Below, piece by piece: positions 839-62,794 of a stretch of DNA of 64,000 nucleotides. The DNA is from Candidatus Doudnabacteria bacterium (GTDB lineage Bacteria > Patescibacteriota > Doudnabacteria > UBA920): NCBI GenBank assembly GCA_038203095.1, contig JBBREH010000002.1:5904-69903 (forward strand), in the 5' to 3' direction. The notes below the pieces were generated by a model. It searched no databases. It had not been told where the DNA came from and saw only the letters and a list, made by a program, of their open reading frames with translations. Each line of letters begins with the position of its first letter. Positions within the stretch are counted from its first letter, which is position 1. A program made the position numbers and the translations under genes.

Positions 839-1275
839 AAAAGTAAATTTAAGATTTAAAATTTAAGATTAAAGTTTGTGCTTACTTTCTTTAATCTTAA
901 ATCTTTCAGCTTAAATCTGATATAAACACAAAACCCCGAAATTTAGCTACTGATAATTCGCCAGGTGGCGAATCAGTCGCTAAATTCCGGGGTCTCGCAG
1001 GAGACGTTTCCGTCCCAGAATTTCATCAGCAAAGGCAGGCCAAGGGCCTGCACTACAGCTAACGAACTTTTCATCTGCTATGGCTCTAGAACACAGCAGA
1101 TTTATTGTCTATTGTTTCAAACTCCCTGCTTGGTAGGCAGATCAACATTTGAAGTAGTGAACTAACTAAAAAAATTATAACAGAAGCCTTAATCCTTGGC
1201 AAATAAAGTTTTCCACAGCGGCATTTGGCTTATTTGTTTTATATATGACACCTATTCCTATCTGAATATCTGCGG

Positions 1276-4200
1276 TTAATTTACATCTATCATTAAAATT
1301 TCAGGCACGTCTCTAAGCTCGGCTAACAACTCATTCGAAACCGCAACCAAACTTTGGGTTTTAATTTTTTTTGCATTTTGACCTGTACCGACTGACAAGT
1401 AAACCTGGGCGTTGCCTTTATTTTTTTCTAAAATTTCCTTAATTTTATTTAAGGCATTCATATTAGAAAGACCTGCCATATGCAAAACTACCTGCTTACT
1501 TTTGCCCATTTCGTTCAAAGCCATACTGTATAGATCATCACTAGGCAACTCTTTTATATCATCTGCTATTAATTTAAATTCTTCATCTTTGTCGGACAAA
1601 CGGCCAATAACCTGGACTATGCAATCATCAGTTAAAAACTGCACGACTTTTTCCATAATTTTAGGAAAAACCAAAACCTCAATATTGCCCCCCAAATCTT
1701 CAAGAGTAAAAAACGCCATCGGATCATTTTTTCGAGTTAAAGTTTTTTTAAGCCGTGAAATAATACCTCCCATAATCACCTTACCACCCAGCTCAGTAAG
1801 TGAGAGACTTTTTACGCTCCGCAATGTAGATAAAACATTTTTATAAACATCCAAGGGGTGCGCTGAGACATACATACCTAAATGCTCCTTCTCCCAGAGC
1901 AGCTTTTCCTCTTTGGTCGCGGGCACTGAAGGTCTTAATTTTAATTTGCCCATTTTTAAAGACGAACCGAATAAGGAATTTTGCCCTTCAACGTCCTGCT
2001 TTAAGTTTTCACGAACAAATTCCAAAACTTCTTCTGTGTTGGCAAGTAATTGGCCGCGTTCACCAAACGCGTCCAGCGCCCCGCCCTTGACCAAGGCTTC
2101 CCAGGAACGTTTACTAAAGTTTTTGGTGTAAGAACGGATAAGAAAATCTTCGAGAGAAGAATAAGGCTGAGAAGTGCGGGGTAAATGGTGATTCTCTGCG
2201 CTATCAATCCTCAACACTTCACCCTCAACCCTCGCTTGAATTATGCTCGCAATAACATCACTCCCCAAATTCTTAATTGCGTTTAACCCAAACCGAATAG
2301 TCTTTTCATCCACAACCGTAAAATTTCCTAAGCTTTCATTCACATCCGGAGGCAAAACCGCAATCCCAAGCTGATCACATTCTTCCACAGCTTCATAAAT
2401 CTTATCCTCATCACCACTTTCCGCAGTCATTAGCGCAGCCATAAATTCAACAGGGAAATTAGCCTTCATATATGCGGTCTGATAGCCTACGGCCGAATAA
2501 GAGGCTGAATGTGCCTTGTTAAAACCATAAGCTGCGAAAGGTTCAATCCAGGTCCAAATTTGCTCGGCTTTTGAATGCGACCATTTGGAAGTATCCATAC
2601 AGCCCTGCACAAACTTAATTTTTTGCTTAGCCATTTCTTCAGGATTTTTTTTACCTACGGCCTTTCTAAACTTGTCGACCTCTTCCCAGCTATAGCCGGC
2701 CAAATCGTGGGCAATTGTTAAAAGATCGTCCTGATAAACTAAAATTCCATACGTTCGGTGAAGAATTTTTTCCAAAGCAGGGTCCAAATATTTAATTAAT
2801 TTTTTGTCGTGCTTTCGCGCAATAAACTCAGGAATAAACTGCATAGGGCCCGGCCGGTAAAGAGCTATCATAGCCATAATGTCAAAAATGTTTGCAGGCT
2901 TAAGTTCCCTAAGATAACGTGTAATCCCCGACGAACCGAGCTGGAAAACACCAAATGTAAGACCATCAGAAAGTAATTTAAAAGTTTTAGGGTCAGGATG
3001 AGGAAGGTTGTAGATATTAATGGATACATTATGGCGCTTTTGAACCAGGTTCACCGCCGATTCCAAAATTGACAAATTACGAATTCCCAGCAAATCTAAT
3101 TTTACCACTCCAATTGCTTTACTGCTCGCGCCGGCGTCCAAAGAATACATATCGTACTGGGTAATAATTCGCTCACCGTCCGGCTCTTTTTGCAACGGCA
3201 TATAGTCAGTCAGGGGAGTCGGAGTTATTACAATACCCGCGGCGTGCATACTCGCATGACGCGCGCAACCTTCCAATTTTTTTGCAATTTCCAATATTCG
3301 ATGAGTCTCAGGGTCACGGTCGTAAATTTCTTTAAGTTCCGGGGATTTTTCCAGAGCCTTTTCAAGCGTCATTAAAAAACCCTGCTTGCCTATGGGTATC
3401 ATTTTAGCAATTTGGTCGCATTTGCTATAAGGGACGGCCATAGCGCGACCAACATCGCGCACGGCGGCGCGTGCGGCCATGGTTCCAAAAGTTATAATTT
3501 GCGCTACCTTGTCCTTTCCATACTTATCAGTAATATAATTAATAACTTCGTCTCGACGGTTGTCGGCAATATCCAAGTCAATATCCGGCGGTGTCGGACG
3601 ATGCATTGTCAAAAAACGCTCAAATGATAACTCATAATATAGAGGATCAACATTAGTAATGCCGAGAATTCGGCCAACAATACTGCCGGCGGCACTTCCC
3701 CTAGTGTTAGTAATTGCACCAATATTATGCGCTCCCGAAACCACGTCTGCCACCATTAAAAAATAGGTGTCGAAGCCTTTTTTTATAATAATATTAAGTT
3801 CATATTCAATTCGCTGTCTAATTTCTTCGGGAATTATTAACTCCTGTTTATCGTTGCCGACAACTGTATTTGAGCCACGCGGCCTTTCACTAGCTATGAT
3901 TCTTTCGTCTTCCCGCTGAACAGTTGTCAATGACGGAACCCCTTGCAATGTGTATGAAGCCAATTTGCCATACATTAACAAAGCTTTTTCGTAAACCATC
4001 TTTCTTAAATAGTTCTCCGAGGTCATACCCTCAGGAATTTCCACCTGGGGAAAATAGCGTTGATCAATTAAAATTTCTAAATTACACATCTCTGCCACTT
4101 TTTGCGTATTTTGCACAGCCTCAGGCAAATCAAAAAATAGCTCCATCATTTTTTGCGGGGAATGAAGTGACAAATCGCAACTGCGCATATCCAAACGGTC

Positions 4201-4929: not shown

Positions 4930-5093
4930 TTTACGATTAACAATTTCCGCTAAGGGGTCCGCCTTTGGCGGAAACTTATTCCTAAGTTAATCGTCAATTG
5001 TCAATCGTTAATCGTTCTAGCCTATCATACCAAAATTCTACCAACTTTGCTATAATTAAAATATATAAAATCAACAATAAAAATAATCCATTT

Positions 5094-8616: not shown

Positions 8617-9339
8617 ATGGATAAGTTACAGATTAAAGCCGAAGTTAGAGATGTAAAAAAATCTAACCCTCAAAAGCTACGCCAAGCAGGCTCACTGCCG
8701 GCTGTACTTTACGGCCACAAAGTGCAAAACGCGGCGCTCACGGTTAACGCCAGAGAGTTTGATAAAATTTTAAAAAAAGCGGGTGAAAGTACCATTGTTG
8801 AACTAATGACCAACGATGGTAAAACTCATCCGGTTTTAATTCACGACGTCCAAATCCATTATTTAACCAGCGTCCCGACCCACGTTGACTTTTACGAGGT
8901 TAGCTTAACGGAAAAACTTAAAGCCAAAGTTGTACTGGAATTTTCCGGTGAATCACAGGCGGTTAAGGCTATGGGCGGAGTTTTGGTTAAGATCTTAAGT
9001 GAAATTGAAGTAGAATGTTTACCAACCGACTTACCTCACAATATTACCGTTAATTTAGAAAGTTTAAAAACTTTAACAGACAGTATTCACATACGCGATA
9101 TAATAGCTCCTGCCAAAGTTAAAATTTTAACCGGTGCCGACGAAATGATAGTTAAAGTTCAGCCACCTCGTGACGTAGAGGCGGAATTGTCCGCTCCGGT
9201 TGTGGAAGACATTAGCAAAGTTGAGGGTGCAGCCGAAATTAAGCCCGATGCCGCTGCCGGCTCAACTTCTGAAAAACCTGAAAAATCCGCCAAGGGCGGA
9301 TCCGCCTCCGGCGGAAAGGATAAGGAAGACAAAAAATAG
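8617..9339 (+). CDS. rplY: 50S ribosomal protein L25 / general stress protein Ctc (long form with an acidic/Lys C-terminal tail)
   Basis: MDKLQIKAEVR...GSLPAVLYG...HYLTSVPTHVDFYEV is the L25/Ctc fold; RBS AAAGGAAACGAG upstream. Confidence 0.85.
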   Translation: MDKLQIKAEVRDVKKSNPQKLRQAGSLPAVLYGHKVQNAALTVNAREFDKILKKAGESTIVELMTNDGKTHPVLIHDVQIHYLTSVPTHVDFYEVSLTEKLKAKVVLEFSGESQAVKAMGGVLVKILSEIEVECLPTDLPHNITVNLESLKTLTDSIHIRDIIAPAKVKILTGADEMIVKVQPPRDVEAELSAPVVEDISKVEGAAEIKPDAAAGSTSEKPEKSAKGGSASGGKDKEDKK

Positions 9340-9408: not shown

Positions 9409-10314
9409 ATGGAAATGAAACCTTATTTAAAATTTAACCGGTCGCAAATCTGGGTTCTTGCAGTTGCAATTTTAGTGCTATTAGTAGGCGGACTTTATTT
9501 TTATCATATTTGCCAAAATAACCCAAGAATAAATGACAAAGTTGAAATTGACGGGAGAGCCTATCAAAAGCTTGTCACCCATAAGGACCAAGAGCCTTTA
9601 CCTCCCGCAAAAAATGGTAGGAATGTAAAGGTAGTAATTTTAATGTACCACCATGTTGGCGACCCGCCGCCCAAAGCCAGCCGTATGCGAAAAGACTTAA
9701 CCGTTTCCACGGCTGATTTCTCGGATCAGGCGAAGTTACTAAAAATGGAAGGATATACCAGCATTAAACTTGGAGATATTTTAGCTTACAGCCAAGGCAA
9801 ATTTTCTATGCCCAAAAATCCGGTTGTTTTTACTTTTGATGACGGCTATGATGATGTTTTTGTAAATGCCCTGCCAATTTTGAAACAGAATGGGTTTGTT
9901 GGCAGCTTAGCAATTATTACCAGGTACCCAAAAAGCGTAATGGGTGATAACTTTTACGCTTCCTGGGATGAAATTGCCAAAGCGTATCAAGAGGGCAACG
10001 AAATTGTTTCGCACACCCAAGACCACTTTGACGGAAAAAATCCCAAATACTCACAAGATTTTATTTTTAATAATTTGACAGGCTCTGTTCAAGATATTAA
10101 AGACCACTTAGGCTATACTCCCAACATTTTAATATACCCATACGGACACTATACTACCAATTATATCGACATAGCCAAAAAGGTAGGCTTTGTAATGGGT
10201 GTAACCATTCATGACGGCAAAACAGTGAGTTTAGATAACTTAATGGAGATTCCACGTGTCAGAGTGCATGGCGGAGAAACTTTGGGGCAGTTTAGAGCAC
10301 GGGCCATGGAGTAA
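9409..10314 (+). CDS. Polysaccharide deacetylase family protein (NodB homology domain) with N-terminal TM anchor
   Basis: VVFTFDDGYDDVF...ALPILK...G..GSLAII and the His motifs of NodB-type deacetylases. Confidence 0.7.
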   Translation: MEMKPYLKFNRSQIWVLAVAILVLLVGGLYFYHICQNNPRINDKVEIDGRAYQKLVTHKDQEPLPPAKNGRNVKVVILMYHHVGDPPPKASRMRKDLTVSTADFSDQAKLLKMEGYTSIKLGDILAYSQGKFSMPKNPVVFTFDDGYDDVFVNALPILKQNGFVGSLAIITRYPKSVMGDNFYASWDEIAKAYQEGNEIVSHTQDHFDGKNPKYSQDFIFNNLTGSVQDIKDHLGYTPNILIYPYGHYTTNYIDIAKKVGFVMGVTIHDGKTVSLDNLMEIPRVRVHGGETLGQFRARAME

Positions 10315-11272
10315 TTTCCGCGAAGCGCCACAAATTATTTAAATCCTTATAAAATTTTACGTCTGCCTTTGGCAGATATTTTTTTATCAGCTCATGCAAT
10401 TCCGCCTTTTGACGAGGGTCAAACTCCAAATATATTAATTTTGGCAGATGTTTTCGCTCTGCAATTTGTTGTAATAAACGTCTAATTTCATACAGGCCGC
10501 TTTCCTTTGTAAATAGGGCCTGTTTTGGCTCAAATTTTAAACCGATTGTTGCGGCTGATGTGTTATTTTTCCATTGATTCCAGCCATAAGGAAGATTGGC
10601 AATAATCATATCAAAATCTCCTTTAATTTTTTGCAGCAAATCTGATTTTATAAACTCTAATCTCCCATACACTGGAGTATGGGAGATAGGGGTTAAAATA
10701 TTTTTTGCATTTTGCTTTGCCACTTTAAGGGCGGATGGCGAAATATCAGATGCAGTCACTTTAATCTTTAATCTTAAATCTTTAATCTTTTTCGTAAGCG
10801 ATATTGCAATACACCCGCTCCCGGTGCCAAGGTCGAGGATTTTGATGGACAAACCGCGGAGCATCCTTCCCTTAAAAAGGGAAGGTGTACCGCTTTGGCG
10901 GGACGGAAGGGTTGGAGTCTTAATCGAAACTTCTCCAACCACCTCCCCGCCCTGCGGGCGGTACTCCTCCTTAAAAAGGAGGAGAGACTGCACAACTCGC
11001 TCCACCAGCAACTCCGTCTCGGGGCGAGGGATTAACACATTTTTATTAACCATAAACCTTAGCCCATAAAAATCCCTATACCCCAAAATATACGCCACCG
11101 GCTCACCTCGAAGTCGCCGCTTTGCCATTAGTGTTAATCTGTTGACTTGTATCCGTGTTAATCTGTTTTCCCCATTCATATACAAAAATTCCTTGGATTT
11201 TCCAAGGACATCTGCCAGTAACAACTCGATTTCTATCGAGGAATATTTTTTTAAAATTTTATTTACCGTCAT
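10292..11272 (-). CDS. prmC: Release-factor glutamine N5-methyltransferase PrmC/HemK. Carries in-frame repeat insertions (GC-rich hairpin block and an AATCTTAAATC repeat).
   Basis: LDLGTGSGCIAISL SAM-binding motif and N(L)PY motif (IIANLPYG). Sits next to prfA. About 45 extra residues (LLFKEEYRPQGGEVVGEVSIKTPTLPSRQSGTPSLFKGRMLRG) are encoded by a GC-rich palindromic block. Confidence 0.8.
   Translation of the reverse strand: MTVNKILKKYSSIEIELLLADVLGKSKEFLYMNGENRLTRIQVNRLTLMAKRRLRGEPVAYILGYRDFYGLRFMVNKNVLIPRPETELLVERVVQSLLLFKEEYRPQGGEVVGEVSIKTPTLPSRQSGTPSLFKGRMLRGLSIKILDLGTGSGCIAISLTKKIKDLRLKIKVTASDISPSALKVAKQNAKNILTPISHTPVYGRLEFIKSDLLQKIKGDFDMIIANLPYGWNQWKNNTSAATIGLKFEPKQALFTKESGLYEIRRLLQQIAERKHLPKLIYLEFDPRQKAELHELIKKYLPKADVKFYKDLNNLWRFAEITPWPVL
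10861..11035. repeat. GC-rich palindromic (RPE-like) insertion block inside the prmC coding sequence; in-frame with no stop
   Basis: Three perfect hairpins in an otherwise AT-rich gene: cttccctt-aaaa-agggaag, ccgccc-tgc-gggcgg and ctcctcc-ttaaaaa-ggaggag. Both antisense frames are also open, which gives the spurious ORFs 10596..11069 and 10774..10995. Confidence 0.6.
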
Positions 11273-23226: not shown

Positions 23227-23321
23227 AAATATTTCGATGTATTGTTATAAAATTATAACTACGAATTCGGAAAACGAAAAGAATGTTAGAGTTGCAAAAG
23301 TTGGCAACAAATACTATAAAT

Positions 23322-23481
23322 AGGACTTACGCTTTTGAGCCAATTTCGAGGAATTTTGTGAGGATGTTTGGAAACGTAGCCAGCTACGGCGACAAATACC
23401 GCAGCAAAATAACGAAGAAATTGGCCAAAGCTGCTTTGAACCGGCGGAGCCGGATTCAAAAGCGGCAAGAGCGTAAGTCCT
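23322..23481 (+). repeat. Family A element copy 1 (~160 nt, TIR AGGACTTACGC/GCGTAAGTCCT)
   Basis: About 80% identical over the 5' 110 nt to 42352..42513, with different 3' hairpins. The ORF 23283..23483 over it is spurious. Confidence 0.7.
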
Positions 23482-23557
23482 AACGTCAATATTTTGGAAT
23501 GTGTTTTTATTTTTGCTGATGTTGAGCTAACCTGAGACGAATGATATAATTACCATT

Positions 23558-24127
23558 ATGCAATATTTTAGAACTTCTGAAACAGATGAAGCGCTTGTAA
23601 TAAAATATTTGGCGGGGGATACCCAAGCTTTGGACGAATTGGTTTTGCGAAATTATAAACAAATTTTCTTTTTTTCCAAGACTTTTGTAAAAAATGACGA
23701 CGCGGCAGAAGATGCCACGCAGGAAACATTTGTAAAGGTTTGGAAAAATTTAAAGAAGTTTGATCCGCAAAAAAAATTCAAAACCTGGCTTTTTCAAATT
23801 GCCAAAAATACCTGTATTGACCATATTAGAAAAACCAAAACTGCGCCTTCTGCCCGGGAAATTGATGCCGAACAGGCCTTAAACGAATTAGAAAAAATTG
23901 TTGACCCTACTCCCTTACCTGAGCAAATTTTTGACGCTTTGGGATTTGAAAAGAATCTTGAACACGCTTTAAACATTTTACCGGAGAATTATAAACTCGT
24001 AGCAACCCTGCATTTGCAGCAAAGCCTGACATTTGATGAAATTGCCGGGATTTTAAAAGAGCCTATTAATACGGTTAAAAGCCGTTACCGCAGGGCGCTG
24101 CTATTAATAAGAAAAAAATTAAACTAA
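23558..24127 (+). CDS. RNA polymerase sigma factor, ECF (sigma-70 regions 2 and 4)
   Basis: ETFVKVWKNLKKFDPQKKFKTWLFQIAKNTCIDHIRK (region 2) and LPENYKLVATLHLQQSLTFDEIAGILKEPINTVKSRYRRAL (region 4). Confidence 0.8.
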   Translation: MQYFRTSETDEALVIKYLAGDTQALDELVLRNYKQIFFFSKTFVKNDDAAEDATQETFVKVWKNLKKFDPQKKFKTWLFQIAKNTCIDHIRKTKTAPSAREIDAEQALNELEKIVDPTPLPEQIFDALGFEKNLEHALNILPENYKLVATLHLQQSLTFDEIAGILKEPINTVKSRYRRALLLIRKKLN

Positions 24128-24159
24128 CCCGAATTTTGTTTTTAAAGTTTATCCGGAAT

Positions 24160-24310
24160 CCTTTCAAAATATCCTCAGTCCGGACCATGCGCAATTTAGC
24201 CGGACTTAACCGGTGCGGGGCGTGGCTCTAAGCTCGAAGATTCCGGTAGGAGCGGATATTATCCGCCCGATTTGGAGGGAAGATGAGATCTCCCCCTACT
24301 CTGAATTGCG
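24160..24310. repeat. Intergenic GC-rich hairpin cluster downstream of the ECF sigma gene
   Basis: ccggaatc...gattccgg long-range helix, agtccgg-n14-ccggact, gcggata-tta-tccgc, ggaggga-n12-tccccct. Same style as the in-CDS GC-rich modules. Confidence 0.4.
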
Positions 24311-24535
24311 AAACTAAATAAATCCTGGTATTTTGAAATTACGATTAACATTATTTCCAGAAAATTTGCGTATGGCCCCTCAGTTTGCCCACGCGCCAAA
24401 ATTTGTGTAATTAAATAGGCTTGCTTGTAAATTGGATGACAATCTTCCTGCGACGATCAATACCCTGTAAAAAAGTGTTTGATTTATCAACCTGCACCAA
24501 AAACTAAGCAAAACTCGTACTATTAATGAAATATT

Positions 24536-25003
24536 ATGAAAATTCCCAACCAAAACAACCCAGACTCCCTGGAAAAAGCCATAACTAAACATTTTTCAAG
24601 CATTTCGATGTCAGGTTGTGACAGCGAGCTTTTTAATAAAATCATTAATAAAATCGAACTGGAAAAACAACTGGAAAAATTAATCCCAAAACTCTGGGCG
24701 GCTTTTGTCTTGTTTTTAATCGGAGTAGCGACTCTGATTTTGGCAGTAAATTTTGCTTCCTCCGCCTTTGCCCAAAGCCCGGCCGCCAAATACCTCTCCT
24801 TAATTTTTACGGATTTTAGGGCTGTATTGGACAACTGGCAAGACTATACTTTTTCAATTTTAGAAAGCCTACCTTTAAGTCAGGTCGCTGTTTTACTAAG
24901 CGGCCTTTTAGCCGGAACATTTATTTTCGATTTTGGCTTTAGCCAATTTAGCAATTTTAAGGCAATACTTAACATGAAAAATTATGGAACCCATCAACAA
25001 TAA
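24536..25003 (+). CDS. Hypothetical single-pass membrane protein downstream of ECF sigma (possible anti-sigma factor; speculative)
   Basis: Position after the sigma factor, one TM helix; no conserved anti-sigma motif seen. Confidence 0.3.
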   Translation: MKIPNQNNPDSLEKAITKHFSSISMSGCDSELFNKIINKIELEKQLEKLIPKLWAAFVLFLIGVATLILAVNFASSAFAQSPAAKYLSLIFTDFRAVLDNWQDYTFSILESLPLSQVAVLLSGLLAGTFIFDFGFSQFSNFKAILNMKNYGTHQQ

Positions 25004-29335: not shown

Positions 29336-29375
29336 CTCTACCGAATACGGAGAGGGCATACAGATATACGGACTG

Positions 29376-29540
29376 ATTAGACTTGTAGCGAATTAATTTT
29401 TTAAATCAAGATTTGATATTTTAGTCAAAATCCCAATTAAAAATTTTGATGTTTAACTTTAGTTAAGCGGAAAAATTATTAACAAGAGTTTGGTAAAAGA
29501 GCAATTTTTGGACAAAAATTAATTCACTACAAGGCTATTA
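29376..29540 (+). mobile_element. Family B MITE copy 1 (~165 bp, TIR ATTAGACTTGTAGCGAATTAATTTTTT)
   Basis: Shares the core AAAATTTTGATGTTTAAC(T/C)T(T/A)AGTTAAGCGGAAAAATT with copies at 53683..53843 and 49997..50158. Flanked on both sides by inverted GAATACGGAGAGG / CCTCTCCGTAT units. Confidence 0.7.
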
Positions 29541-31317: not shown

Positions 31318-31501
31318 TTTTGAAGCGAAATTGCAGGATTTCGAGACGATTGGCAGAAATAAATTTTGTCGTGCCAAAGGTACATCCGCCTTTGGCGGAA
31401 CGTTTAACCTGAGTTAAGCGGATAAATTTTTTCGGGCAAGCGGCCGAAAGGCTGTAATTGCAGCCAAAAGGATTTTTAAAATGGGTTCTGAGTAGAGTTT
31501 T

Positions 31502-36394: not shown

Positions 36395-36535
36395 TCTCCT
36401 GACGCCCAGGAAAATCTTAAATCTTTCCGCCAAAGGCGGATCTCAGCCAAAGACTGACTAGCCTCTGGCTGGCGCAATCGCATCAAGCGGAAAATCTTAA
36501 ATCCTTAATCTTTCCGCCAAAGGCGGATCCGCCCC
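36395..36535 (+). repeat. Two direct copies of GGAAAATCTTAAATC(CTTAAT)CTTTCCGCCAAAGGCGGATC (AATCTTAAATC motif plus CCGCCAAAGGCGG palindrome) separated by a 53-nt palindromic spacer
   Basis: Read directly. The same two motifs recur at 841-925, 10755-10800 (inside prmC), 4957-4975, 31383-31401 and 54752-54770. Confidence 0.6.
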
Positions 36536-36560
36536 AGGCGGAAAAACTTTAACTAAATTT

Positions 36561-36733: not shown

Positions 36734-37459
36734 ATGGCGGTATTATTTTACAAATTAATCGGTATAGTATATACTAGTTATGTAACAATATTAGTGCATA
36801 TGAAAACTGACTTAAAAATAAAAGCAATTAGTTTACGTCGACAGGGTTTTAGCTATGGTGACATTAAAAGGAAATTGGAAATTTCCAAAAGCACAAGTTT
36901 ACTATGGACAAAGGATGTAATTTTGTCATCTAAGTCACAAAACATACTAGCAACGAAAACTGAAGCAGCAAGAAAAAAAGGTAGGGAAACCCATACTTTA
37001 AATACTAAGTTAAAATACAGCAAAATTAACAATCTGGTTGTTAATAATTTATCACATTTAAAAATAAATAAAACTTACGCTAAATTGCTTTGCGCAATGC
37101 TTTATTGGGGGGAGGGGAGCAAATCATCTGGCCAGGTTGTTTTTACCAACTCTGACCCCGAAATGATTAAGGCTTTTTTAAAATTATTTAGATATGGCTT
37201 TGTGATTAATGAACAAAAAGTTAAAGCGTTACTGCACCTTCATCCATACCATAACGAAAAAATTCAAAAGGTCTTTTGGTCTAAAATTACAGGCATTTCC
37301 CTTGAAAAAATAAAAATTTTCAACAAAACCTCGTTCGGTAAAACCATAAGACCAGGCTATCCTGGCTGTATTGCTATTAAATATGCAAGTATGGATATAT
37401 TAAACGAATTGATGTATTATTATAAAGAAATAAATTATCTGCTTGGGGAGTTAGTATAA
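36734..37459 (+). CDS. HTH-domain protein inserted between rpmG and tRNA-Trp; possible homing-endonuclease-like or transposase-remnant protein (speculative). Likely start 36800 (MKTDLKIK).
   Basis: N-terminal helix-turn-helix (LKIKAISLRRQGFSYGDIKRKLEISKSTSLLW) like IS630/Hin-type HTH. C-terminal ...LLCAMLYWGEGSKSS... is faintly LAGLIDADG-like. The stop codon lies inside the first bases of tRNA-Trp. Confidence 0.35.
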   Translation: MAVLFYKLIGIVYTSYVTILVHMKTDLKIKAISLRRQGFSYGDIKRKLEISKSTSLLWTKDVILSSKSQNILATKTEAARKKGRETHTLNTKLKYSKINNLVVNNLSHLKINKTYAKLLCAMLYWGEGSKSSGQVVFTNSDPEMIKAFLKLFRYGFVINEQKVKALLHLHPYHNEKIQKVFWSKITGISLEKIKIFNKTSFGKTIRPGYPGCIAIKYASMDILNELMYYYKEINYLLGELV

Positions 37460-39468: not shown

Positions 39469-39631
39469 GAAACCTTCTAACTAGTGGAATTTAAACATTA
39501 CAAATGGAGAAAAGATTCTTCGACTTTACGGAGAAGATATTTTTCCTTCCGCATTCGTAGTCAAACATAACATTAATATAATTCCACATAAAGAAAAACC
39601 GTAACTATTCCTCTTTTCCCGATGGTTGGCT

Positions 39632-39683
39632 GTAGCGTGCCCATTTATGGGCGTTTCCTGGACACCGATTACGGCCACGCTAC
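39632..39683 (+). repeat. Family D double-hairpin element copy 1 (GTAGCGTG-CCCATTTATGGGCG-...-CACGCTAC)
   Basis: 22-nt identity with copies at 62743..62794 and 60133..60186. The ORFs 39622..39825 and 39526..40023 over it are spurious. Confidence 0.7.
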
Positions 39684-39766
39684 ACAATATCGATACTTTT
39701 GGAAAAAAGTAAATACTTACGAAAAACCTTCTCGCAAGCGGGAAGGTTTTTTGATATACTGCCAAC

Positions 39767-42351: not shown

Positions 42352-42513
42352 AGGACTTACGCCTTTGGTCGAGTACGAGGCATTTTGCGAGGATTTTTGG
42401 AGACGTAGTTTGACTACGGCGACAAAAACCGCAGCAAAATAACGAAGTAATCGGCCAAACCCCTTGTGGGTTTCATCAATATTTTAAATATTTAGATGAA
42501 AGGCGTAAGTCCT
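42352..42513 (+). repeat. Family A element copy 2
   Basis: TIR AGGACTTACGCC/GGCGTAAGTCCT; core conserved with copy 1; 3' hairpin ttcatc-aatattttaaatatt-tagatgaa differs from copy 1. Confidence 0.7.
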
Positions 42514-42609: not shown

Positions 42610-44325
42610 TTGATTTCTAACCATATGAATCAATCTCAAAAACCTGTAACCTTAATAATTCTTGACGGCTGGGGATACCGCGAGGGCAAGGAGCATAACG
42701 CCATTTTGGAGGCGCAAACGCCGTTTTTTGACCATTTGTGGCAAAACTATCCCCACACCTTGCTTAACGCCAGCGAACAGCACGTGGGCTTGCCGGGAGG
42801 CACTATTGGCAACAGCGAAGTTGGCCATATGACTATGGGTGCGGGGCGGGTGATAGATACCGATTTGGTCAGAATATCAAAAGCAATGGAGTCCGGCGAA
42901 TTTAACACCAACCCGGCTTTTGCCGCGCTTTTTGAACACGTAAAAAATAACCATTCAACTTTGCATGTAATGGGTTTGGTGAGTGATGGAGGGGTGCACA
43001 GCCACCGAGAACATTTGCACGGCTTTTTAACCGCGGCCAAAGAAGCGGGCATAGAAAAAGTTGCCATTCACGCTTTTACGGATGGGCGGGATGTGGCGCC
43101 GCAGAGCGGGGGGAAATATTTGCAGGATTTGGAAAAGGTTATTGCCAATTTGGGCATAGGCCACATTGCCACCGCCTCGGGCAGATATTTTGCCATGGAC
43201 CGCGATAAAAATTGGCATCGCACCAAACTTGTGGAAGACGCGATTTTTGAGGGTATAGGCAAAATGTCCCTTGCAAATAAACCGTCCGATGTTATTAAAG
43301 AGCTTTATAAAACAGGGGAGTTGGATGAGTTGCTTGAACCCCTAATTTTTTTGGACGACAAAGGCAAGGCTATGCCGGTCCAAAAAAATGACGGCATTTT
43401 CTTTTTTAATTTTAGAAGCGATAGACCTCGCCAGCTAACGCAAAAAATTGTCGAGCGCGCCAAAAAACATAACTTGTATTTCGTAACGCTAACGGAATAC
43501 GATCCCGCGCTTGAAAGCGTAGTGGCGTTCCCGCCAAATAAAATAGAGACTACTTTAGCCGCGGAAATTAGCCAAGCCGGCCTGACTCAGTCCCATATTG
43601 CCGAAACCGAAAAATACGCGCACGTAACTTACTTTTTTAACGGCGGCAAACAGGAACCGCATAAAAATGAACATCACTTTTTAATAGAAAGCCGGCGCGA
43701 CATAAAAACGCACGACGAAGCGCCGGAAATGCGCGCGAGAGAGATTGCCGATAAATCCATTGAACGGCTAAACGCCGGCGACGACTTTCTGGTAATTAAC
43801 TTTGCCAACGCCGATATGGTCGGACATACAGCTAATAAACCTGCAATTATTACTGCCGTAGAAACCGTGGACCGCGAGCTAAAGCGGGTTGTCGATGTTG
43901 TACTGGCCAAAGGCGGCATCGCCCTAATTACCGCCGACCACGGCAACGCCGAACTAAATTTTGATGCCTCAACCGGCCACAAACACACCGCGCACACACT
44001 GAACCAAGTCCCGTTTATAATTGCTGAAAAAAGTGGAAAGTGGGTAGTGAGTAGTGAAAAGTCGAAAACCATCAGCGTGCCCCCTCCTCTCCCTACCGAA
44101 GGTCCGACGAAGTCCGCCTTAGGCGGACGAAGTTGGATGGGAGAGGACGTCGCCTCAGCGACAGGTGAGGGTGCAGTTTTCCCCTCCCTTGATGGGAGGG
44201 GCGAGGGGAGGGTGACTCTCAACTCTTCAAGAAGCTTAGCCGATATTGCCCCGACTACCCTAGCCCTAATGCAAATAAAAAAACCGTCCGCAATGACGGG
44301 GGAGAGTTTGATTGTTTCTGATTAA
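42610..44325 (+). CDS. gpmI: 2,3-bisphosphoglycerate-independent phosphoglycerate mutase with ~60-aa in-frame GC-rich insertion near the C-terminus
   Basis: ILDGWG, GNSEVGHMT, ADHGN motifs. Insert ...EKSGKWVVSSEKSKTISVPPPLPTEGPTKSALGGRSWMGEDVASATGEGAVFPSLDGRGEGRVTLNSSRS precedes the conserved LADIAPT..L.L..I.KP..MTG.SLI C-terminus. Confidence 0.9.
   Translation: MISNHMNQSQKPVTLIILDGWGYREGKEHNAILEAQTPFFDHLWQNYPHTLLNASEQHVGLPGGTIGNSEVGHMTMGAGRVIDTDLVRISKAMESGEFNTNPAFAALFEHVKNNHSTLHVMGLVSDGGVHSHREHLHGFLTAAKEAGIEKVAIHAFTDGRDVAPQSGGKYLQDLEKVIANLGIGHIATASGRYFAMDRDKNWHRTKLVEDAIFEGIGKMSLANKPSDVIKELYKTGELDELLEPLIFLDDKGKAMPVQKNDGIFFFNFRSDRPRQLTQKIVERAKKHNLYFVTLTEYDPALESVVAFPPNKIETTLAAEISQAGLTQSHIAETEKYAHVTYFFNGGKQEPHKNEHHFLIESRRDIKTHDEAPEMRAREIADKSIERLNAGDDFLVINFANADMVGHTANKPAIITAVETVDRELKRVVDVVLAKGGIALITADHGNAELNFDASTGHKHTAHTLNQVPFIIAEKSGKWVVSSEKSKTISVPPPLPTEGPTKSALGGRSWMGEDVASATGEGAVFPSLDGRGEGRVTLNSSRSLADIAPTTLALMQIKKPSAMTGESLIVSD
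44075..44215. repeat. GC-rich palindromic (RPE-like) insertion inside gpmI. Contains a CCCCTCCC-loop-GGGAGGGG-C-N-AGGGGAGGGT module nearly identical to one inside fmt.
   Basis: Hairpins cctctccc/gggagagg, gtccgcc-tta-ggcggac, gtcgc-ctca-gcgac, cccctccc-ttgat-gggagggg. Compare 56849..56880. Confidence 0.65.
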
Positions 44326-48713: not shown

Positions 48714-49991
48714 ATGGAACCACTAGCCAATAAAATCCGCCCAACATCGCTAAACGAATTTGTCGGGCAACAACATTTGGTGGGGGAAGGCAAACCTTTA
48801 AGACAGGCGATGGAAAATCGTCATCTTTTTTCTTTTATTTTATGGGGACCACCCGGGGTGGGCAAGACCACGCTGGCGCGGATTTACGCTAACGCCATGG
48901 GCGCGGATTACTTTGAACTGTCCGCTGTGTCCGCGGGCAAAGACGATATTAGAAAAATAATTTCAAATGACGCCCTGCCGGCTGGCGAAGAAATACCAAA
49001 AAAGAAACCAAAAGTAATATCGGCATATAATTTACCAAATGCGCTTTCATTGGATAGATTTAAAGAGTCAATTAATAAGTTAAATTCGGACCAAGACAAA
49101 CAGCCGATAAATCGGCTAACTACAGACGGGGGCAAACCAAAAATTTTATTTTTAGACGAAATCCACCGTTTTAACAAAGCTCAGCAGGACTTTTTGCTTC
49201 CGTATGTGGAAACGGGAAAACTGACTCTCATCGGCGCCACCACAGAGAATCCGTCATTTGAAGTTATTTCCGCTTTGCTTTCGCGCTGCCGGGTATTTGT
49301 ACTCAATGAATTAACAGCGGAAGAAATGCGCGCAGTAATCAGTCAAACTAAAATCGAGATGGCTGATGATGCAAAAGAGTGGCTAATTGCCATGGCCAAT
49401 GGCGACGCGCGCGCGGCCATAACCATGCTGGAAAACACCTTAAGTTTGTACCGCCAAATTACGGTTGAAAATTTAAAAAACGCACTCCAATCCAAACACC
49501 TGCGCTACGATAAAAAGGGCGAGGAACATTACAATATTATTTCAGCTTTTATAAAATCGATGAGAGCTTCACAGCCCGACGCGGCGCTCTACTATTTAGC
49601 CAGAATGGTGGAAGCGGGGGAGGATCCAAAATTCATTGCCCGTAGGATGGTGGTGTTTGCCAGCGAAGATGTCGGCCTTGCCCAGCCAACCGCCTTGGTT
49701 GTTGCCAATGCCGTGTTTGAAGCCTGTCAAAAAATTGGCTACCCTGAATGCGCTATCAATCTTGCCCACGGTGCAGCATATCTCTCACAGTCTAAAAAAG
49801 ACCGCTCCGTCTACAACGCCTTACGGTCTGCCCAGGCAGATGTAGAGGCGCTCGGCAATTTACCCACCCCTCTTAAACTGCGAAACGCACCCACCAAATT
49901 AATGAAAAGTCTCGGCTATGGTGAGGGTTACGAAAAATATGATAATAATGATTATTTTCCCGAGGAGTTAAAAGGAAAAAAATATTTGTGA
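48714..49991 (+). CDS. rarA: Replication-associated recombination protein A (RarA/MgsA) with ~55-aa insertion between Walker A and B; ends with TGA
   Basis: GPPGVGKTT (Walker A), ILFLDEIHRFNK (Walker B/sensor), ARMVEAGEDP C-terminal domain. Confidence 0.85.
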   Translation: MEPLANKIRPTSLNEFVGQQHLVGEGKPLRQAMENRHLFSFILWGPPGVGKTTLARIYANAMGADYFELSAVSAGKDDIRKIISNDALPAGEEIPKKKPKVISAYNLPNALSLDRFKESINKLNSDQDKQPINRLTTDGGKPKILFLDEIHRFNKAQQDFLLPYVETGKLTLIGATTENPSFEVISALLSRCRVFVLNELTAEEMRAVISQTKIEMADDAKEWLIAMANGDARAAITMLENTLSLYRQITVENLKNALQSKHLRYDKKGEEHYNIISAFIKSMRASQPDAALYYLARMVEAGEDPKFIARRMVVFASEDVGLAQPTALVVANAVFEACQKIGYPECAINLAHGAAYLSQSKKDRSVYNALRSAQADVEALGNLPTPLKLRNAPTKLMKSLGYGEGYEKYDNNDYFPEELKGKKYL

Positions 49992-49996
49992 TATAA

Positions 49997-50158
49997 TAGA
50001 CTTGTTGCTTAATAATTTTTCGCCCAAAATGTGTCCTTTCGCCAAAACCTTGTTAAAAATTTTTTCGCTTAACTTAGGTTAAACATCAAAATTTTTAGCT
50101 GCGGCCTTGTCAGAAATAACACATTTTAGATCAAAAAAGTTATTTAACAACAAGTCTA
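49997..50158 (-). mobile_element. Family B MITE copy 3 (inverted orientation)
   Basis: The reverse complement aligns end-to-end with 53683..53843 (TIR TAGACTTGTTGTTAAATAACTTTTTT). Read-through of its TIR gives the spurious MSEITHFRSKKLFNNKS N-terminus of ORF 50107. Confidence 0.7.
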
Positions 50159-51087: not shown

Positions 51088-52120
51088 AAAGCTATTAAAA
51101 TCATACAACTATAACTTCCCTGTGGAGCTAATTGCCCAGTCTCCCGCCCGCCCGCGCGACTCCGCGCGGCTTTTGACATACAAGATAGCTGGCAATAAAA
51201 TAAGTTTCGACACTTTTGCCAACATTGGTAAATATCTACCAAAAAATTCAGTTTTGGTTTTTAACCAAACCAAAGTGGTGCCTGCTCGTTTGACGATTAT
51301 AAAACCCACTGGCGAGAAGGCGGAAATTTTGTACATTGACCACAATAAAAAATTCATTAAAGTCATCGCCAACAAAAAATTGTCGCTTAAAAGCACGTTC
51401 CCCCTTTTATGCGGCCGCATAAAAGGGGGAACGTTTAAAGTTGCAAAAAAGGAAGGTCAATTTTATTTCTTAAAGCCCAGCTTCCCGACATCCGAAATTA
51501 AGAGCCTAATGGCCAAATACGGTAAAACCCCGTTACCGCCTTACATTAAACATTCACCGCTCACAGAGAACCAAAAACGCAAAGAGTACCAATCGGTATT
51601 TGCCAAACAGGGATTGTCCGTTGCCGCGCCAACCGCGAGTTTACATTTTACAAAAAAGCTGATTAAAAACCTGCAAAAGCAGGGGATAGAGGTTAGGTTT
51701 ATTACGCTCAATGTAAACTTAGGCACCTTTGCCCCTTTAAAAGAAGAAAATTTGGCAACCGGCTTGCTCCACAGCGAAAGCTACGAAATAGACAAAAAAA
51801 CCTCGGGTGATTTAAACCGGGCAAAAAAACTCGGTCAGCCGATTATTGCCGTTGGCACAACAGTTATTCGTACTTTAGAATCTGCCGCAAGCAACCATCA
51901 GCTAAAAAATCTTTCCGGCCAAACCCGCCTATTCATTCAACCAGGGTACAATTTTAAATTTATTGACGGTCTAATAACCAACTTCCACGTTCCAAAATCC
52001 AGCCTTCTTATGCTTATTTCCGCACTTGTGGGTCGCAAAAAACTGCTTTCTCTTTATCAAAAAGCTATATCCAAAAAGTTCCGCCTCTTTTCTTTTGGCG
52101 ACGGGATGGTTATAGTTTAG
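51074..52120 (+). CDS. queA: S-adenosylmethionine:tRNA ribosyltransferase-isomerase
   Basis: YNYNFPVELIAQSPARPRDSARLL N-terminus, FITLNVNLGTFAPLK, HSE.YEI, AVGTTVIRTLES. Confidence 0.85.
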   Translation: MSLLEKLLKSYNYNFPVELIAQSPARPRDSARLLTYKIAGNKISFDTFANIGKYLPKNSVLVFNQTKVVPARLTIIKPTGEKAEILYIDHNKKFIKVIANKKLSLKSTFPLLCGRIKGGTFKVAKKEGQFYFLKPSFPTSEIKSLMAKYGKTPLPPYIKHSPLTENQKRKEYQSVFAKQGLSVAAPTASLHFTKKLIKNLQKQGIEVRFITLNVNLGTFAPLKEENLATGLLHSESYEIDKKTSGDLNRAKKLGQPIIAVGTTVIRTLESAASNHQLKNLSGQTRLFIQPGYNFKFIDGLITNFHVPKSSLLMLISALVGRKKLLSLYQKAISKKFRLFSFGDGMVIV

Positions 52121-53027: not shown

Positions 53028-53468
53028 ATGCAAAATTCACTTACCAAGATCCATCTTGAAACAAAAAAACAATTTGAAATTGTGGATTTGACCGGTCAAA
53101 TAATGAAAGCTGTGGTTGACTCAAAAATCCAAAATGGTTTAGTCCTTATTTTTTGCCCACACACAACGGCCGGAATTAGAATCAACCACAACGAACCTCT
53201 ACTAATGCAGGATTTTATGAAGGCTCTATACCGCTTGGTGCCAATAAACCAAAGCTACAGCCACGATTTATTTGAAGTCAGACAAAACGTCGCTCCTAAT
53301 GAGCGCAGCAACGGCCACGCGCATGTTAAATCGTTTTTACTTGGCTCATCCGAAACGCTTCCAATTGATAAAGGCAGTTTGCTTTTAGGCCAAAGGCAAA
53401 GCATTTTTTTTATTGAACTGGAGGGAGGCAGAATGCGCGAAGTTATTATTAAAATTATTGGCGAATAA
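53028..53468 (+). CDS. YjbQ/UPF0047 family protein (secondary thiamine-phosphate synthase-like)
   Basis: LVLIFCPHTTAGIRINHNE...NGHAHVKSFLLGSSETLPIDKGSLLLGQRQSIFFIELEG. Confidence 0.7.
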   Translation: MQNSLTKIHLETKKQFEIVDLTGQIMKAVVDSKIQNGLVLIFCPHTTAGIRINHNEPLLMQDFMKALYRLVPINQSYSHDLFEVRQNVAPNERSNGHAHVKSFLLGSSETLPIDKGSLLLGQRQSIFFIELEGGRMREVIIKIIGE

Positions 53469-53545
53469 ATCCAGGCGCCTTCCTGCGGGGAATTACACCC
53501 CGCAGGAAGGCTATAAAATCCATTCATCCCCGCAGCAAGCTACGG
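53462..53545 (+). repeat. GC-rich palindromic unit at the 3' end of yjbQ (AATAAATCCAGGC...CCTTCCTGCGGGG-aattacac-CCCGCAGGAAGG), homologous to 54602..54724
   Basis: ~70-nt alignment between the two copies, each starting right at a stop codon (GAATAA / TTCAATAA). Confidence 0.55.
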
Positions 53546-53682
53546 AGTACGGACTGAATACGGATATACGGAGGGAGTACTTGAGCATTTTGAATTTCGT
53601 ATATCCGTATGCTCCCTCTCGGTACTTCCGTAAAGAATCTTAAGGTGGTCGATCTTAAGACAGGTAACAAAGATAAAATAAT

Positions 53683-53843
53683 AGACTTATTGTTTAATAA
53701 CTTTTTTGATTCAAAATCTGGTATTTCAGACAAAACCGATGTTTAAAATTTTGATGTTTAACCTAAGTTAAGCGGAAAAATTTTAAACAAGGTTTTGACG
53801 AAATAACAGATTTTAGGCGAAAAATTATTAAACAACAGGTCTA
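53683..53843 (+). mobile_element. Family B MITE copy 2
   Basis: TIRs TAGACTTATTGTTTAATAACTTTTTT / AAAAATTATTAAACAACAGGTCTA. The spurious ORF 53524..53733 (MSEIPDFESKKLLNNKS) arises from its TIR. Confidence 0.7.
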
Positions 53844-54601: not shown

Positions 54602-54724
54602 AATAAATCCAGGCATTTTCCTACGAGGTACTAAACCCCGCAGAAAGACTATAATTCCATTTATTCCCGCCGTCCGTCAGCCTAGGCTGACGGACGGGGT
54701 ATTTTGGAGGGAGCCTGGATAAAA
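54602..54724 (+). repeat. GC-rich palindromic unit (homolog of 53462..53545) bounded by ATCCAGGC/GCCTGGAT, containing the perfect 28-nt palindrome CCGTCCGTCAGCCTAGGCTGACGGACGG
   Basis: Read directly. Confidence 0.55.
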
Positions 54725-54857
54725 AACATCAAAATTTGTTTTGATTGACTGTCTCATCCGCCTCCGGCGGACAATTTTTGTCCAAAGAGCCCATTCGGCA
54801 ACAGTTCCAATAAAATGGCGCGAAATTTGTGGTAAAGGTTTTGTTTTATCCTAAACA

Positions 54858-57117: not shown

Positions 57118-57308
57118 CTACAAAAAATCTTACAAATCTACAAATGACTACAAATCTCTGTAACCATATTAATACAATTATACTGTTTCTATAGCAGGTT
57201 GACAAAACTCTCTCTCTGATATTTTTAGGAGTCGCCCGGCGCCAGTTATATACGGACGATTTTTCGTCATTGGGACGAAAAAGCAACTGGCAAACAGAAG
57301 GGGGCTAA

Positions 57309-57470
57309 ATGGAGTTCAGCTCAACCGGATGGTACTCGCAACACGGAGCATTCATAAAAAGGATGCAGGCCTTCGCAGACGAAGGCTGGGATATAGTCAA
57401 TGTCATAAGCTCCGGAAACGGCAAAGTCTGCGCCTTTTTCACAAGGGTGAAACAGGGCGCAAGCCAGTAA
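57309..57470 (+). CDS. Small DUF4177-like protein (53 aa)
   Basis: RBS GAAGGGGG; MEFSSTGWYSQHGAFIKRMQAFADEGWDIVNVISSGNGKVCAFFTRVKQGASQ has the EGWxxVxV...G.....F.R pattern of DUF4177; followed by a terminator. Confidence 0.4.
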   Translation: MEFSSTGWYSQHGAFIKRMQAFADEGWDIVNVISSGNGKVCAFFTRVKQGASQ

Positions 57471-57484
57471 AATCATGCCGTACC

Positions 57485-57528
57485 CAAGCATCTAAGGTCG
57501 AAGGATCTTAGATGCTTGTATTTTTGTA
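57485..57528 (+). terminator. Rho-independent terminator caagcatctaag-gtcgaaggatc-ttagatgcttg + TATTTTTGT
   Basis: Perfect 12-bp stem plus T-run. Confidence 0.55.
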
Positions 57529-57660
57529 GTGTGCTCGTTCGAGTCTGAGCCTGAGGGCTCATCCCTCAAAGTCGAAGACCGATTTATCGACGATACTGTA
57601 ACGCTCATAAATAGGCACGCTACGGCTATCAATCGGACAAATGCAGGCCAATGGCCTGCG

Positions 57661-62746: not shown

Positions 62747-62794
62747 CGCGCCGATTTATCGGCTATCTTAGTCGCCCATAAATGGGCACGCTAC
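62743..62794 (-). repeat. Family D element copy (reverse orientation) immediately after gltX
   Basis: See 39632..39683. The ORF 62763..62951 (-) is spurious. Confidence 0.7.

Follow-up and report, generated by a model that had tools for sequence, protein, structure and literature searches.

Putative dispersed palindromic repeats lying in frame within prmC, gpmI and fmt of a Candidatus Doudnabacteria bacterium

Rickettsia palindromic elements (RPEs), of which RPE-1 to RPE-10 have been named (Ogata et al. 2000, 2002), are, as far as the accounts in PMC2229807 and PMC10969869 describe them, palindromes of 105-146 bp bounded by terminal inverted repeats (TIRs), which occur between genes and in frame in at least 19 conserved Rickettsia genes. 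In these accounts they are kept at the same site across species and the added peptide is tolerated (PMC2229807, PMC10969869), and translation of an element within the gene product is described as shown experimentally for gmk (PMC2229807). The present analysis concerns GC-rich hairpin blocks in three genes, prmC, gpmI and fmt, on a 64,000-nucleotide (nt) stretch of the genome of a Candidatus Doudnabacteria bacterium, a member of the candidate phyla radiation (CPR). This whole stretch (contig JBBREH010000002.1, positions 5,904 to 69,903) is referred to as the window, and all positions are counted from its first letter.

Insertions of this kind are also known for repetitive extragenic palindromic (REP) sequences, which mostly lie downstream of open reading frames (ORFs) and in some species entirely inside them (PMC3733652); Di Nocera et al. 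2013 (PMC3733652) described GTAG/CGTC REPs wholly inside ORFs in several phyla, where they encode 20-82 extra residues in conserved proteins. Bacterial MITEs (transposable elements that are miniature and have inverted repeats) with in-frame insertions include Correia/NEMIS, ERIC, the Coxiella QMITE and the Anabaena MITEs (PMC10969869), and the GC clusters of yeast mitochondria are mobile DNA (PMC4478555). By analogy, the comparison supports the view that the elements described here work like RPEs and intragenic REPs, and that they are new families of a known phenomenon in a new lineage.

GC content is 40.5% over the whole window, and local GC in the blocks is 0.55 (window 0.405). The window holds 34 GC-rich perfect hairpins (stem of at least 6, GC of at least 0.7), against a mean of 4.5 and a maximum of 9 in shuffled sequences. 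All of the hairpins quoted in the initial annotation of the three blocks are present and perfect, and translation confirmed that the blocks are in frame and stop-free; their lengths are multiples of three, as is that of an insert in the gene for ribosomal protein L25. The annotation had also equated the blocks with extra protein residues, and ortholog alignments do map these segments onto the palindromic DNA, most orthologs being without them. Judged from the DNA, the blocks appear to be dispersed palindromic repeats and not lineage-specific protein loops. The nearest named relatives of PrmC, GpmI and Fmt from the window are proteins of Candidatus Doudnabacteria and Patescibacteria metagenome-assembled genomes. 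The host genes and the parts of the prmC element (plus-strand coordinates) are as follows.

10292-11272, minus strand: prmC (release-factor glutamine methyltransferase), host gene; NCBIfam TIGR03534, 216.8 bits, matched in two stretches split at the insert
42610-44325, plus strand: gpmI (cofactor-independent phosphoglycerate mutase), host gene; TIGR01307, 592.5 bits, in two stretches split at the block; the start is likely the ATG at 42625
56119-57117, minus strand: fmt (methionyl-tRNA formyltransferase), host gene; TIGR00460, 250.8 bits
10854-10987 (approximate), minus strand: composite palindromic element in frame in prmC (PrmC residues ~95-140), recognised from its hairpins, its folding z-score and palindromic homologs in relatives
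10854-10862: remnant 3' TIR of this element, CCGCGGAGC
10865-10885: hairpin H5, CCTTCCC-TTAAAAA-GGGAAGG, perfect
10890-10901: hairpin H4
10910-10940: hairpin H3
10947-10961: hairpin H2, CCGCCC-TGC-GGGCGG, perfect
10964-10984: hairpin H1, CTCCTCC-TTAAAAA-GGAGGAG, perfect

The prmC block had initially been placed at 10861-11035. The element itself is real, and its upper limit lies lower, as 10988-11035 encodes the conserved PrmC segment NVLIPRPETELLVE and is not part of the insert. Folding of the block is far stronger than that of shuffled sequences (z = -6.7). For comparison, DNA of prmC inserts was collected by a metagenome scan for the Doudnabacteria-specific (Y/F)LEFDPRQK motif together with look-ups, giving 13 distinct inserts of at least 30 amino acids (aa); a PrmC protein alignment (A1) was made from 40 Doudnabacteria-type orthologs; and 80 PrmC loci (L005-L084), almost all from other phyla and with a best identity of 45%, served as a control set. 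An assembly artefact was considered and set aside, as the same architectures are present in independent assemblies (NCBI, JGI, ENA, Logan).

The stretch of PrmC between PRPETE and ILDxGTGSG has 61 residues in the window and ~20-24 in the insert-free orthologs of the DNA set; its length is highly variable among the 40 aligned orthologs, which contain several recognisable types of repeat-derived peptide at this place. Homologs of the window element that are still palindromic occur in prmC of loci L001, L003 and L152, and the element is conserved almost base for base with L001 and L003, where PrmC identity is 63% and about 50%, respectively. Through L133 the element also belongs to one family with the intergenic copy in L087. 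Orthologs with the segment keep the palindromic signature rather than encoding it in ordinary coding DNA. When the long prmC inserts are aligned they share a common architecture of a 5' TIR (TGCGGAGC), H1, internal hairpins, H5 and a 3' TIR (GCTCCGCG), of which the window copy retains the 3' TIR only. Composites of this family measure ~125-160 nt, have both TGCGGAGC and GCTCCGCG ends in L133, L152, L142, L004 and L167, and fold with z from -3.7 to -8.5. All 13 distinct inserts are GC-enriched (0.38-0.59, compared with 0.33-0.45 in the rest of the gene), and 12 of them have folding z between -2.9 and -8.5, the exception being L165 (z -0.5); insert-free orthologs (20-24 residues at the site) have a GC of 0.23-0.30 there and a fold z of ~0.

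At least six versions of the H1 stem were found, all of them complementary (ctcctcc/ggaggag, cccctcc/ggagggg, ccccgcc/ggcgggg, tcccctc/gagggga, tccccc/ggggga and ccctcccc/ggggaggg). In H5 the loop reads tttttaa in the window and, flipped, ttaaaaa in L001/L003, an inversion that changes the peptide from PSLFKGR to PSLKKGR, and in L004 a nested insert of ~55 nt lies in the H5 loop relative to L142. A phmmer search with the 47-aa peptide of the prmC insert gave 0 matches among 1.84 billion representatives, which is uninformative given that the query is short and of low complexity.

A second variable site in prmC carries a different, AT-rich repeat.

10760-10793, minus strand: in-frame AT-rich repeat of the AATCTTAAATCTTTAATCTT type, encoding KIKDLRLKIK at the second of the variable prmC sites; direct-repeat families D4/D18, at a site that is variable in alignment A1

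Further copies of the D4/D18 repeat are located at 890-923 and 36493-36513, and family D19 adds one at 36413 (36411-36425). AT-rich short repeats of the AATCTTAAATCTT type flank intergenic TCCGCC hairpins, with one copy in frame in prmC, and AT-rich palindromes are in frame at the second prmC site in related loci (L169, QLQNFKFKISNLKL), so the phenomenon is not confined to GC-rich modules. The hairpin GCAGGCC-AAG/AAT-GGCCTGC is found twice in the window (1035-1051 and 57643-57659), and its stem family is in frame in the prmC insert of L169 (VQALGLPA...QQATGLPY; L169 3001-3939). No clean insertion boundary could be drawn in the pair L169/L170 (P0021/P0044), where the central part of the gene has diverged too far for this, or is recombinant. 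A short PrmC-like methyltransferase of another CPR lineage (L134, ~1053-1884), inspected as protein only, has in the equivalent loop a peptide such as TCCGCC-type hairpins would encode, and its close relatives (L147/L159) have KKIKKPVE at that loop; from this peptide, in-frame hairpin insertion seems to reach beyond Doudnabacteria.

The inserts in gpmI and fmt are built from shorter modules.

44050-44214, plus strand: mosaic insert in gpmI of 55 aa (SSEKSKTIS...GEGRV), recognised from hairpins and ortholog comparison
44050-44076: AT-rich lead-in of the gpmI insert
44086-44093 and 44139-44146: outer stem, CCTCTCCC and GGGAGAGG, enclosing the TCCGCC hairpin
44112-44128: hairpin GTCCGCC-TTA-GGCGGAC, perfect, flanked by the direct repeat ACGAAGT
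44149-44162: hairpin GTCGC-CTCA-GCGAC
44181-44213, plus strand: three-arm module CCCCTCCC-TTGAT-GGGAGGGG-CG-AGGGGAGGGT, read as PSLDGRGEGR; perfect hairpin at 44181-44201
56836-56886, minus strand: insert in fmt of 17 residues (Fmt residues 78-94, CLPSPSPSPDGRGMGPA), with the three-arm module at 56849-56881 on the plus strand
56849-56869: hairpin of the fmt module, CCCCTCCC-GTCAG-GGGAGGGG, perfect
Predicted peptides of the in-frame blocks: EEYRPQGGEVVGEVSIK (PrmC), SWMGEDVASATGEGAVFPSLDGR (GpmI) and NLCLPSPSPSPDGR (Fmt)

Both inserts, annotated at first as 44075-44215 and 56840-56883, are real with the adjusted limits given above, that in gpmI now including the AT-rich lead-in. The gpmI block folds with z = -3.6 compared with shuffles; the 51-nt fmt block has z = -1.45, which is not significant alone. 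Most GpmI orthologs of 500-520 aa lack the 55-residue segment, and other repeat-like inserts are present at exactly the same loop in about 14 of the 120 sequences listed. The 17-residue Fmt segment is missing from the nine closest orthologs (62-68% identity), and a more distant Fmt clade has inserts of the SPSPNPSP..GRG type, with the same module, at the same site. A near-identical module had been claimed for the two genes, and the 32-nt pattern CCCTCCC-N5-GGGAGGGGC-N-AGGGGAGGGT was indeed found twice in the window (gpmI 44182-44213, fmt 56850-56881) with 0 expected by chance, the two copies differing only in the loop and one inter-arm base. As the genes are on opposite strands and the module has the same plus-strand orientation, the peptides differ, FPSLDGRGEGRV in one and LPSPSPSPDGRG in the other; it is the DNA, and not the peptide, that is conserved. 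The inter-arm CG of the gpmI copy, instead of the canonical TT/CT, removes an in-frame TAG.

Both modules align with the 5' ends of intergenic elements in L135 (copies A, B and C). The sub-pattern GGGAGGGG-NN-AGGGGAGGG has 0 matches in the control PrmC loci L005-L084; the full three-arm pattern has exact matches, mostly in spacers close to gene starts and with flanks that are unrelated, in 45 IMG/VR contigs (44-71% GC), so the unit is enriched in this lineage and not specific to it. The G strand of the module, GGGAGGGG-NN-AGGGGAGGG, matches the canonical four-tract G-quadruplex (G4) motif as a pattern.

Copies elsewhere and insertion polymorphism, both raised in the initial annotation, were confirmed: copies exist in other genes as well as in intergenic DNA and other genomes, and the polymorphism is between close relatives. 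Over 125 nt, the element in frame in prmC of L133 is related (nhmmer E = 1.9e-13) to a copy in L087 that begins at the stop codon of fmt. In the close relative L085, whose fmt is 84.6% identical to that of L087, the same spacer downstream of fmt is AT-rich and empty, where L087 has an element of at least 125 nt. Conversely, 60 nt that are missing from L087 have been inserted in L085, exactly within the loop of the fmt three-arm hairpin. The L142 prmC element is related to intergenic DNA of L005 (12716-12845; E = 1.4e-5). Three spacer copies are present in L135, of which A and B are mutually inverted, lie upstream of gap and atpB and match at E = 2e-22; all three arms have changed jointly between them (CCCTTCCC/GGGAAGGG vs CCCCTCCC/GGGGAGGG). 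In L161, and with the same sequences in L163, one hairpin family occurs in prmC and twice, in different frames, in a 1223-aa ORF. Of 109 strong GC-rich hairpins counted over 328 kb, in loci that are mostly Doudnabacteria-like, 53 fall within long ORFs, and many hairpins are unique. What is inserted at any one site varies greatly from lineage to lineage, with several unrelated families at the same permissive loop. These comparisons demonstrate repeat families, dispersal, both orientations, presence/absence polymorphism, nested insertion and paired differences in the two arms of stems.

A short module of the gpmI insert, TCCGCC-N3-GGCGGA, is itself dispersed, with 9 exact copies in the window compared with 0.04 expected for a looser search in which one mismatch was allowed. 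Besides the gpmI copy these are the following.

9286-9315, plus strand: tandem TCCGCC-N3-GGCGGA hairpin pair, in frame in the part encoding the C-terminal tail (SAKGGSASGG) of ribosomal protein L25/Ctc
36513-36542: intergenic tandem TCCGCC hairpin pair, the same doublet as in the L25 tail, upstream of a small ORF
4958-4972, 31385-31399, 36426-36440 and 54757-54771: single intergenic TCCGCC hairpins

The tail of L25 reads KGGSAPGG in the L004 ortholog and is without it in L001.

None of the 13 prmC inserts has a stop in the host frame. In the two remaining sense frames stops number 17 and 30, and 3 and 1 of the 13 inserts are open. Among 36 loci, none had a prmC broken at the insert site. An open host frame and the lost TAG are expected if ribosomes read through the inserts, and neither would be needed if they were excised or bypassed; from this we infer that the inserts are translated with the host protein. 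In AlphaFold2 models, PrmC residues 111-139 and GpmI residues 474-526 (566-aa form, P0121 numbering) have a predicted local distance difference test (pLDDT) score below 50 and lie between well-predicted elements, so that both inserts are predicted to be disordered surface loops. The position of the prmC insert is the linker that joins the N-terminal and methyltransferase domains. Third positions of codons for residues identical between the window and L001 are the same in 25 of 30 cases inside the element and in 99 of 175 in the rest of prmC (Fisher p = 0.008). Taken with the differences between stems, this synonymous constraint indicates that the arms are kept complementary. This could be brought about by selection acting on a structure of the DNA or the RNA, by templated repair or by replacement from other copies.

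We consider it probable that the blocks are copies or mosaics of non-autonomous, hairpin-forming repeats of the REP/bacterial interspersed mosaic element (BIME), MITE or RPE type, dispersed in Doudnabacteria-like CPR genomes. The basic units would be GC-rich stem-loops of 15-40 nt, such as TCCGCC-N3-GGCGGA and the three-arm CCCCTCCC-loop-GGGAGGGG-NN-AGGGGAGGG, which would combine into composites of ~125-160 nt bounded by TIRs (TGCGGAGC...GCTCCGCG in the prmC family). They may be copied in trans by a single-strand, hairpin-recognising transposase of the REP-associated tyrosine transposase (RAYT) or IS200-IS605 kind, which is our leading guess, or by recombination between copies. Copies would land both in genes and in intergenic DNA, those surviving in genes being a multiple of three in length, stop-free in the host frame and situated in a permissive surface loop or domain linker. 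Such survivors would be transcribed and translated as a disordered extra peptide, presumably neutral, and could persist through speciation, as the prmC element has done across orthologs of ~50-63% protein identity. Later evolution would act at the DNA level, with changes in both stem arms, inverted loops, modules entering loops and deletion of pieces, and hairpin loops would be hot spots for more insertion and inversion.

Several points weigh against this. No transposase or RAYT was found among the 43 window ORFs scanned (64 kb of genome). There is no consistent target-site duplication (TSD), the single candidate being the 7-nt ACGAAGT around the gpmI TCCGCC hairpin, and neither the other 8 TCCGCC copies nor those of L135 show a consistent one. 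L087/L085, the only clean intergenic pair of a filled and an empty site, is cut by a contig end, copy number within the genome is extrapolated from 64 kb, and the proposed translation is drawn from frame statistics. Near-perfect stems have persisted for long, unlike what is predicted for a decaying selfish insert, and at least the three-arm unit, with its 45 IMG/VR matches, is no transposon specific to this lineage and may be a motif that is convergent or functional.

This persistence of stems is one of the points in favour of another, unlikely explanation, that the blocks are functional nucleic-acid structures under selection (mRNA-stabilising or RNase-processing stem-loops, pause sites at domain boundaries, or a hairpin/G4 switch), with the peptide as a by-product. 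Near-perfect stems last across prmC orthologs of ~50-63% identity and differ on both arms, copies A and B of L135 show co-variation of all three module arms, synonymous sites are better conserved within the prmC element, intergenic copies either follow a stop codon immediately or precede a start codon by 11-20 nt, and the prmC insert sits at a domain linker. However, the modules occur in both orientations relative to transcription, so that the gpmI mRNA has the G-rich strand and the fmt mRNA the C-rich one; the inserts are absent from most orthologs, the closest included, have no Rfam match (over the window Rfam found four tRNAs only) and vary greatly in content at one site between lineages, and templated repair, or replacement from other copies, can also keep arms complementary in the absence of selection. 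It is likewise improbable, and offered tentatively, that the modules are more than tolerated selfish DNA and form a structure-maintained class of elements of CPR genomes. Stems would be kept by selection or a dedicated hairpin-templated mechanism, to which the co-variation of all three arms and the synonymous constraint in an essential gene point; further modules would preferentially enter at hairpin loops; and the three-arm unit, exact in contigs of many GC backgrounds, would be a hairpin/G-quadruplex switch acting on transcription, mRNA stability or translation of the host or neighbouring gene.

Dispersal is harder to reconcile with an origin in place, in which template switching or fold-back replication errors would create inverted duplications in fast-evolving loops, the hairpins being a mutational by-product. 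The inverted H5 loop, the stem differences between orthologs, the many unique hairpins and the lack of TSDs and of a transposase among the window ORFs would all suit it, but the significant homology of copies over 100-130 nt across unrelated loci and genomes already disfavours it, as do the identical 32-nt module in gpmI and fmt, the presence of the same families between and within genes, and the clean presence or absence of whole elements in close relatives; we regard it as very unlikely. Even less probable is that the blocks are not translated, through intron-like removal from the mRNA or byp-like ribosome skipping. GC-rich hairpins in a relatively AT-rich genome could suggest this, and CPR rRNA genes do carry excised insertions. 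Yet excised or bypassed inserts need not keep the frame, and the 13 prmC inserts and those of gpmI, fmt and L25 all have lengths divisible by three and are open in the host frame only, 36 loci yielded no insert that breaks the frame, and an in-frame TAG was lost from the gpmI copy. Finally, the blocks might be DNA-uptake signals as in Neisseria or Haemophilus, lying in genes in tolerated frames. CPR bacteria depend on DNA uptake, and uptake sequences do form inverted pairs and occur in poorly conserved protein segments, but the best 8-10-mers reach counts of 6-14 on both strands of the 64 kb, where an uptake signal has a density of ~1 per kb, and there are many stem sequences instead of one motif; this has the least chance of all of being correct.

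If the blocks are indeed dispersed repeats, RPEs are a close parallel. The RPE-like behaviour proposed in the initial annotation is supported by the mapping of segments, the copies elsewhere, the polymorphism and the palindromic signature in orthologs, which together are the behaviour of RPEs and intragenic REPs, and does not imply membership of an RPE family, which is unlikely given that the host is a CPR bacterium. As RPEs are described in the accounts cited above, the composites of the prmC family resemble them in size (~125-160 nt), in their TIRs and in lying both in frame and between genes, with the exceptions of the 51-nt fmt block and of the window prmC copy with its 3' TIR only. Set against the same accounts, the elements differ in host phylum, in that the blocks are mosaics of much shorter hairpin units, in that unrelated families share one permissive loop in different lineages, and in that translation is inferred from frame statistics where it is experimental for the gmk product.

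Stem-loops that are GC-rich, 20-40 nt long, arranged in inverted or tandem pairs and assembled into mosaics also recall REPs, BIMEs and REPINs (PMC3733652). Unlike these, the TCCGCC and CCCCTCCC modules have no consistent GTAG or CGTC tag, although a few stems start with (C)GTC (CGTCCCG in L152, CGTCGC at 44148 in the window), they are not predominantly extragenic (53 of 109 strong hairpins, as above), and RAYT is absent from the 43 scanned ORFs. With MITEs they share small size, lack of autonomy and of coding capacity for a transposase, TIRs, strong folding, multiple copies and occasional in-frame fusion with host ORFs; MITEs typically come with TSDs and a cognate insertion sequence, however, neither of which was found, and the present units are shorter and modular. 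Bypass elements and intervening sequences interrupt the frame, while all inserts examined here keep it and have no stops. Mitochondrial GC clusters are similar in that GC-rich hairpin modules spread, between genes and in coding regions, in a relatively AT-rich compact genome, but they are organellar and not bacterial. Allomyces double-hairpin elements have a two-hairpin architecture, and the element layout here, G-arm/C-arm, TAA, C-arm/G-arm, resembles a double hairpin. The GC-rich 'byp' elements of Magnusiomyces yeast mitochondria break the frame and are bypassed, and those described here keep it. No report of this in CPR came from a literature search directed at palindromic repeats and in-frame insertion in CPR/Patescibacteria, which is not proof that none has been published.

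At least four housekeeping genes in 64 kb have repeat-derived segments, namely prmC (at two sites), gpmI, fmt and rplY/ctc, with a wecG/tagA-like gene, mgsA and queA as further candidates and an extra segment of DnaE unexplained, and insert density looks at least comparable to that in Rickettsia. Such segments inflate protein length and give rise to spurious 'hypothetical' peptides, and alignments, trees and structure models built from CPR proteins can be misled by them. Permissive loops hit repeatedly by different families are a natural map of sites in essential enzymes that tolerate 15-55 extra residues. The small, streamlined genomes of CPR bacteria nonetheless maintain many perfect hairpins, and the spread of these and the maintenance of their stems are testable on complete CPR genomes. 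As in-frame RPEs and REPs are known elsewhere, a known phenomenon is extended to a new lineage and nothing is overturned.

3835-3966, minus strand: extra segment of DnaE (residues 322-365), absent from the L001 ortholog

The DnaE segment does not fold significantly (z = 0.05) and is possibly an old, decayed insert; at this site L004 carries another insert of repeat-like character.

A REPIN-like family of two inverted stem-loops, (G)TAGCGTGCCCAT-TT-ATGGGCG ... CGCCCAT-AA-ATGGGCACGCTAC, is located at 39628-39690, 57580-57625, 60125-60190 and 62744-62800. It (CGCCCATAAATGGGCACGCTAC) bears the GTAG tag typical of RAYT-mobilised REPs and is distinct from the G/C-rich modules. One doublet is in frame in a WecG/TagA+NUDIX ORF (59802-61190), just ahead of the start of the Pfam match at residue 130, another follows the stop codon of ORF 61220-62746 (glutamyl-tRNA-synthetase-like by eye), and a singlet at 49103-49124 lies within the AAA domain of mgsA. 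Upstream of fmt there is a gene-poor spacer of ~540 nt (57118-57660) with hairpins at 57369, 57546-57568 and 57643 and one REP-like unit; an Rfam search of 57100-57680 gave nothing at E <= 1.

Three intergenic regions (24160-24310, 53462-53545 and 54602-54724) had been listed as containing units similar to the in-gene blocks, which did not hold, as they are not detectably of the same families. The first, a GC-richer stretch with several small hairpins downstream of ORF 23558-24127 (ECF sigma factor-like in appearance), has no relative in any fetched locus, and Rfam of 24100-24540 gave nothing at E <= 1. The other two match only each other: the pair, delimited at 53464-53577 and 54602-54723, is 81% identical over 53 nt (nhmmer E ~1e-8 over ~110 nt), its members start at the stop codons of a UPF0047 family gene and a mechanosensitive-channel-like gene, and both contain a long perfect hairpin, with stems of 14 bp and 12 bp. 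The two elements are unrelated to the in-gene modules.

An AT-rich intergenic repeat of up to ~134 nt with the inverted motif GATGTTTAAC-N-AGTTAAGCGG is present at 29374-29524, 49993-50097 and 53678-53829, and the TCCGCC hairpins at 4958 and 31385 are followed by a related motif; a promoter or an operator-like site is a possible reading. A direct repeat of 46 nt, 93% identical, occurs at 23384-23429 (in the small ORF 23283-23483) and at 42414-42459 (~150 nt upstream of gpmI), and may mark a duplicated small gene or fragment. A free-standing ORF of 241 aa (36734-37459) between a small rpmG-like ORF and tRNA-Trp has no Pfam match at 1e-5; it contains the stretch ...LYWGEGSK..., which may recall LAGLIDADG homing endonucleases. 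Lastly, the hairpin CCGCGCG-ACTC-CGCGCGG (51152-51169) is near the N-terminus of queA (residues ~27-32), the product of which has 348 aa compared with the 322 positions of its Pfam profile, and is a possible further in-frame module.

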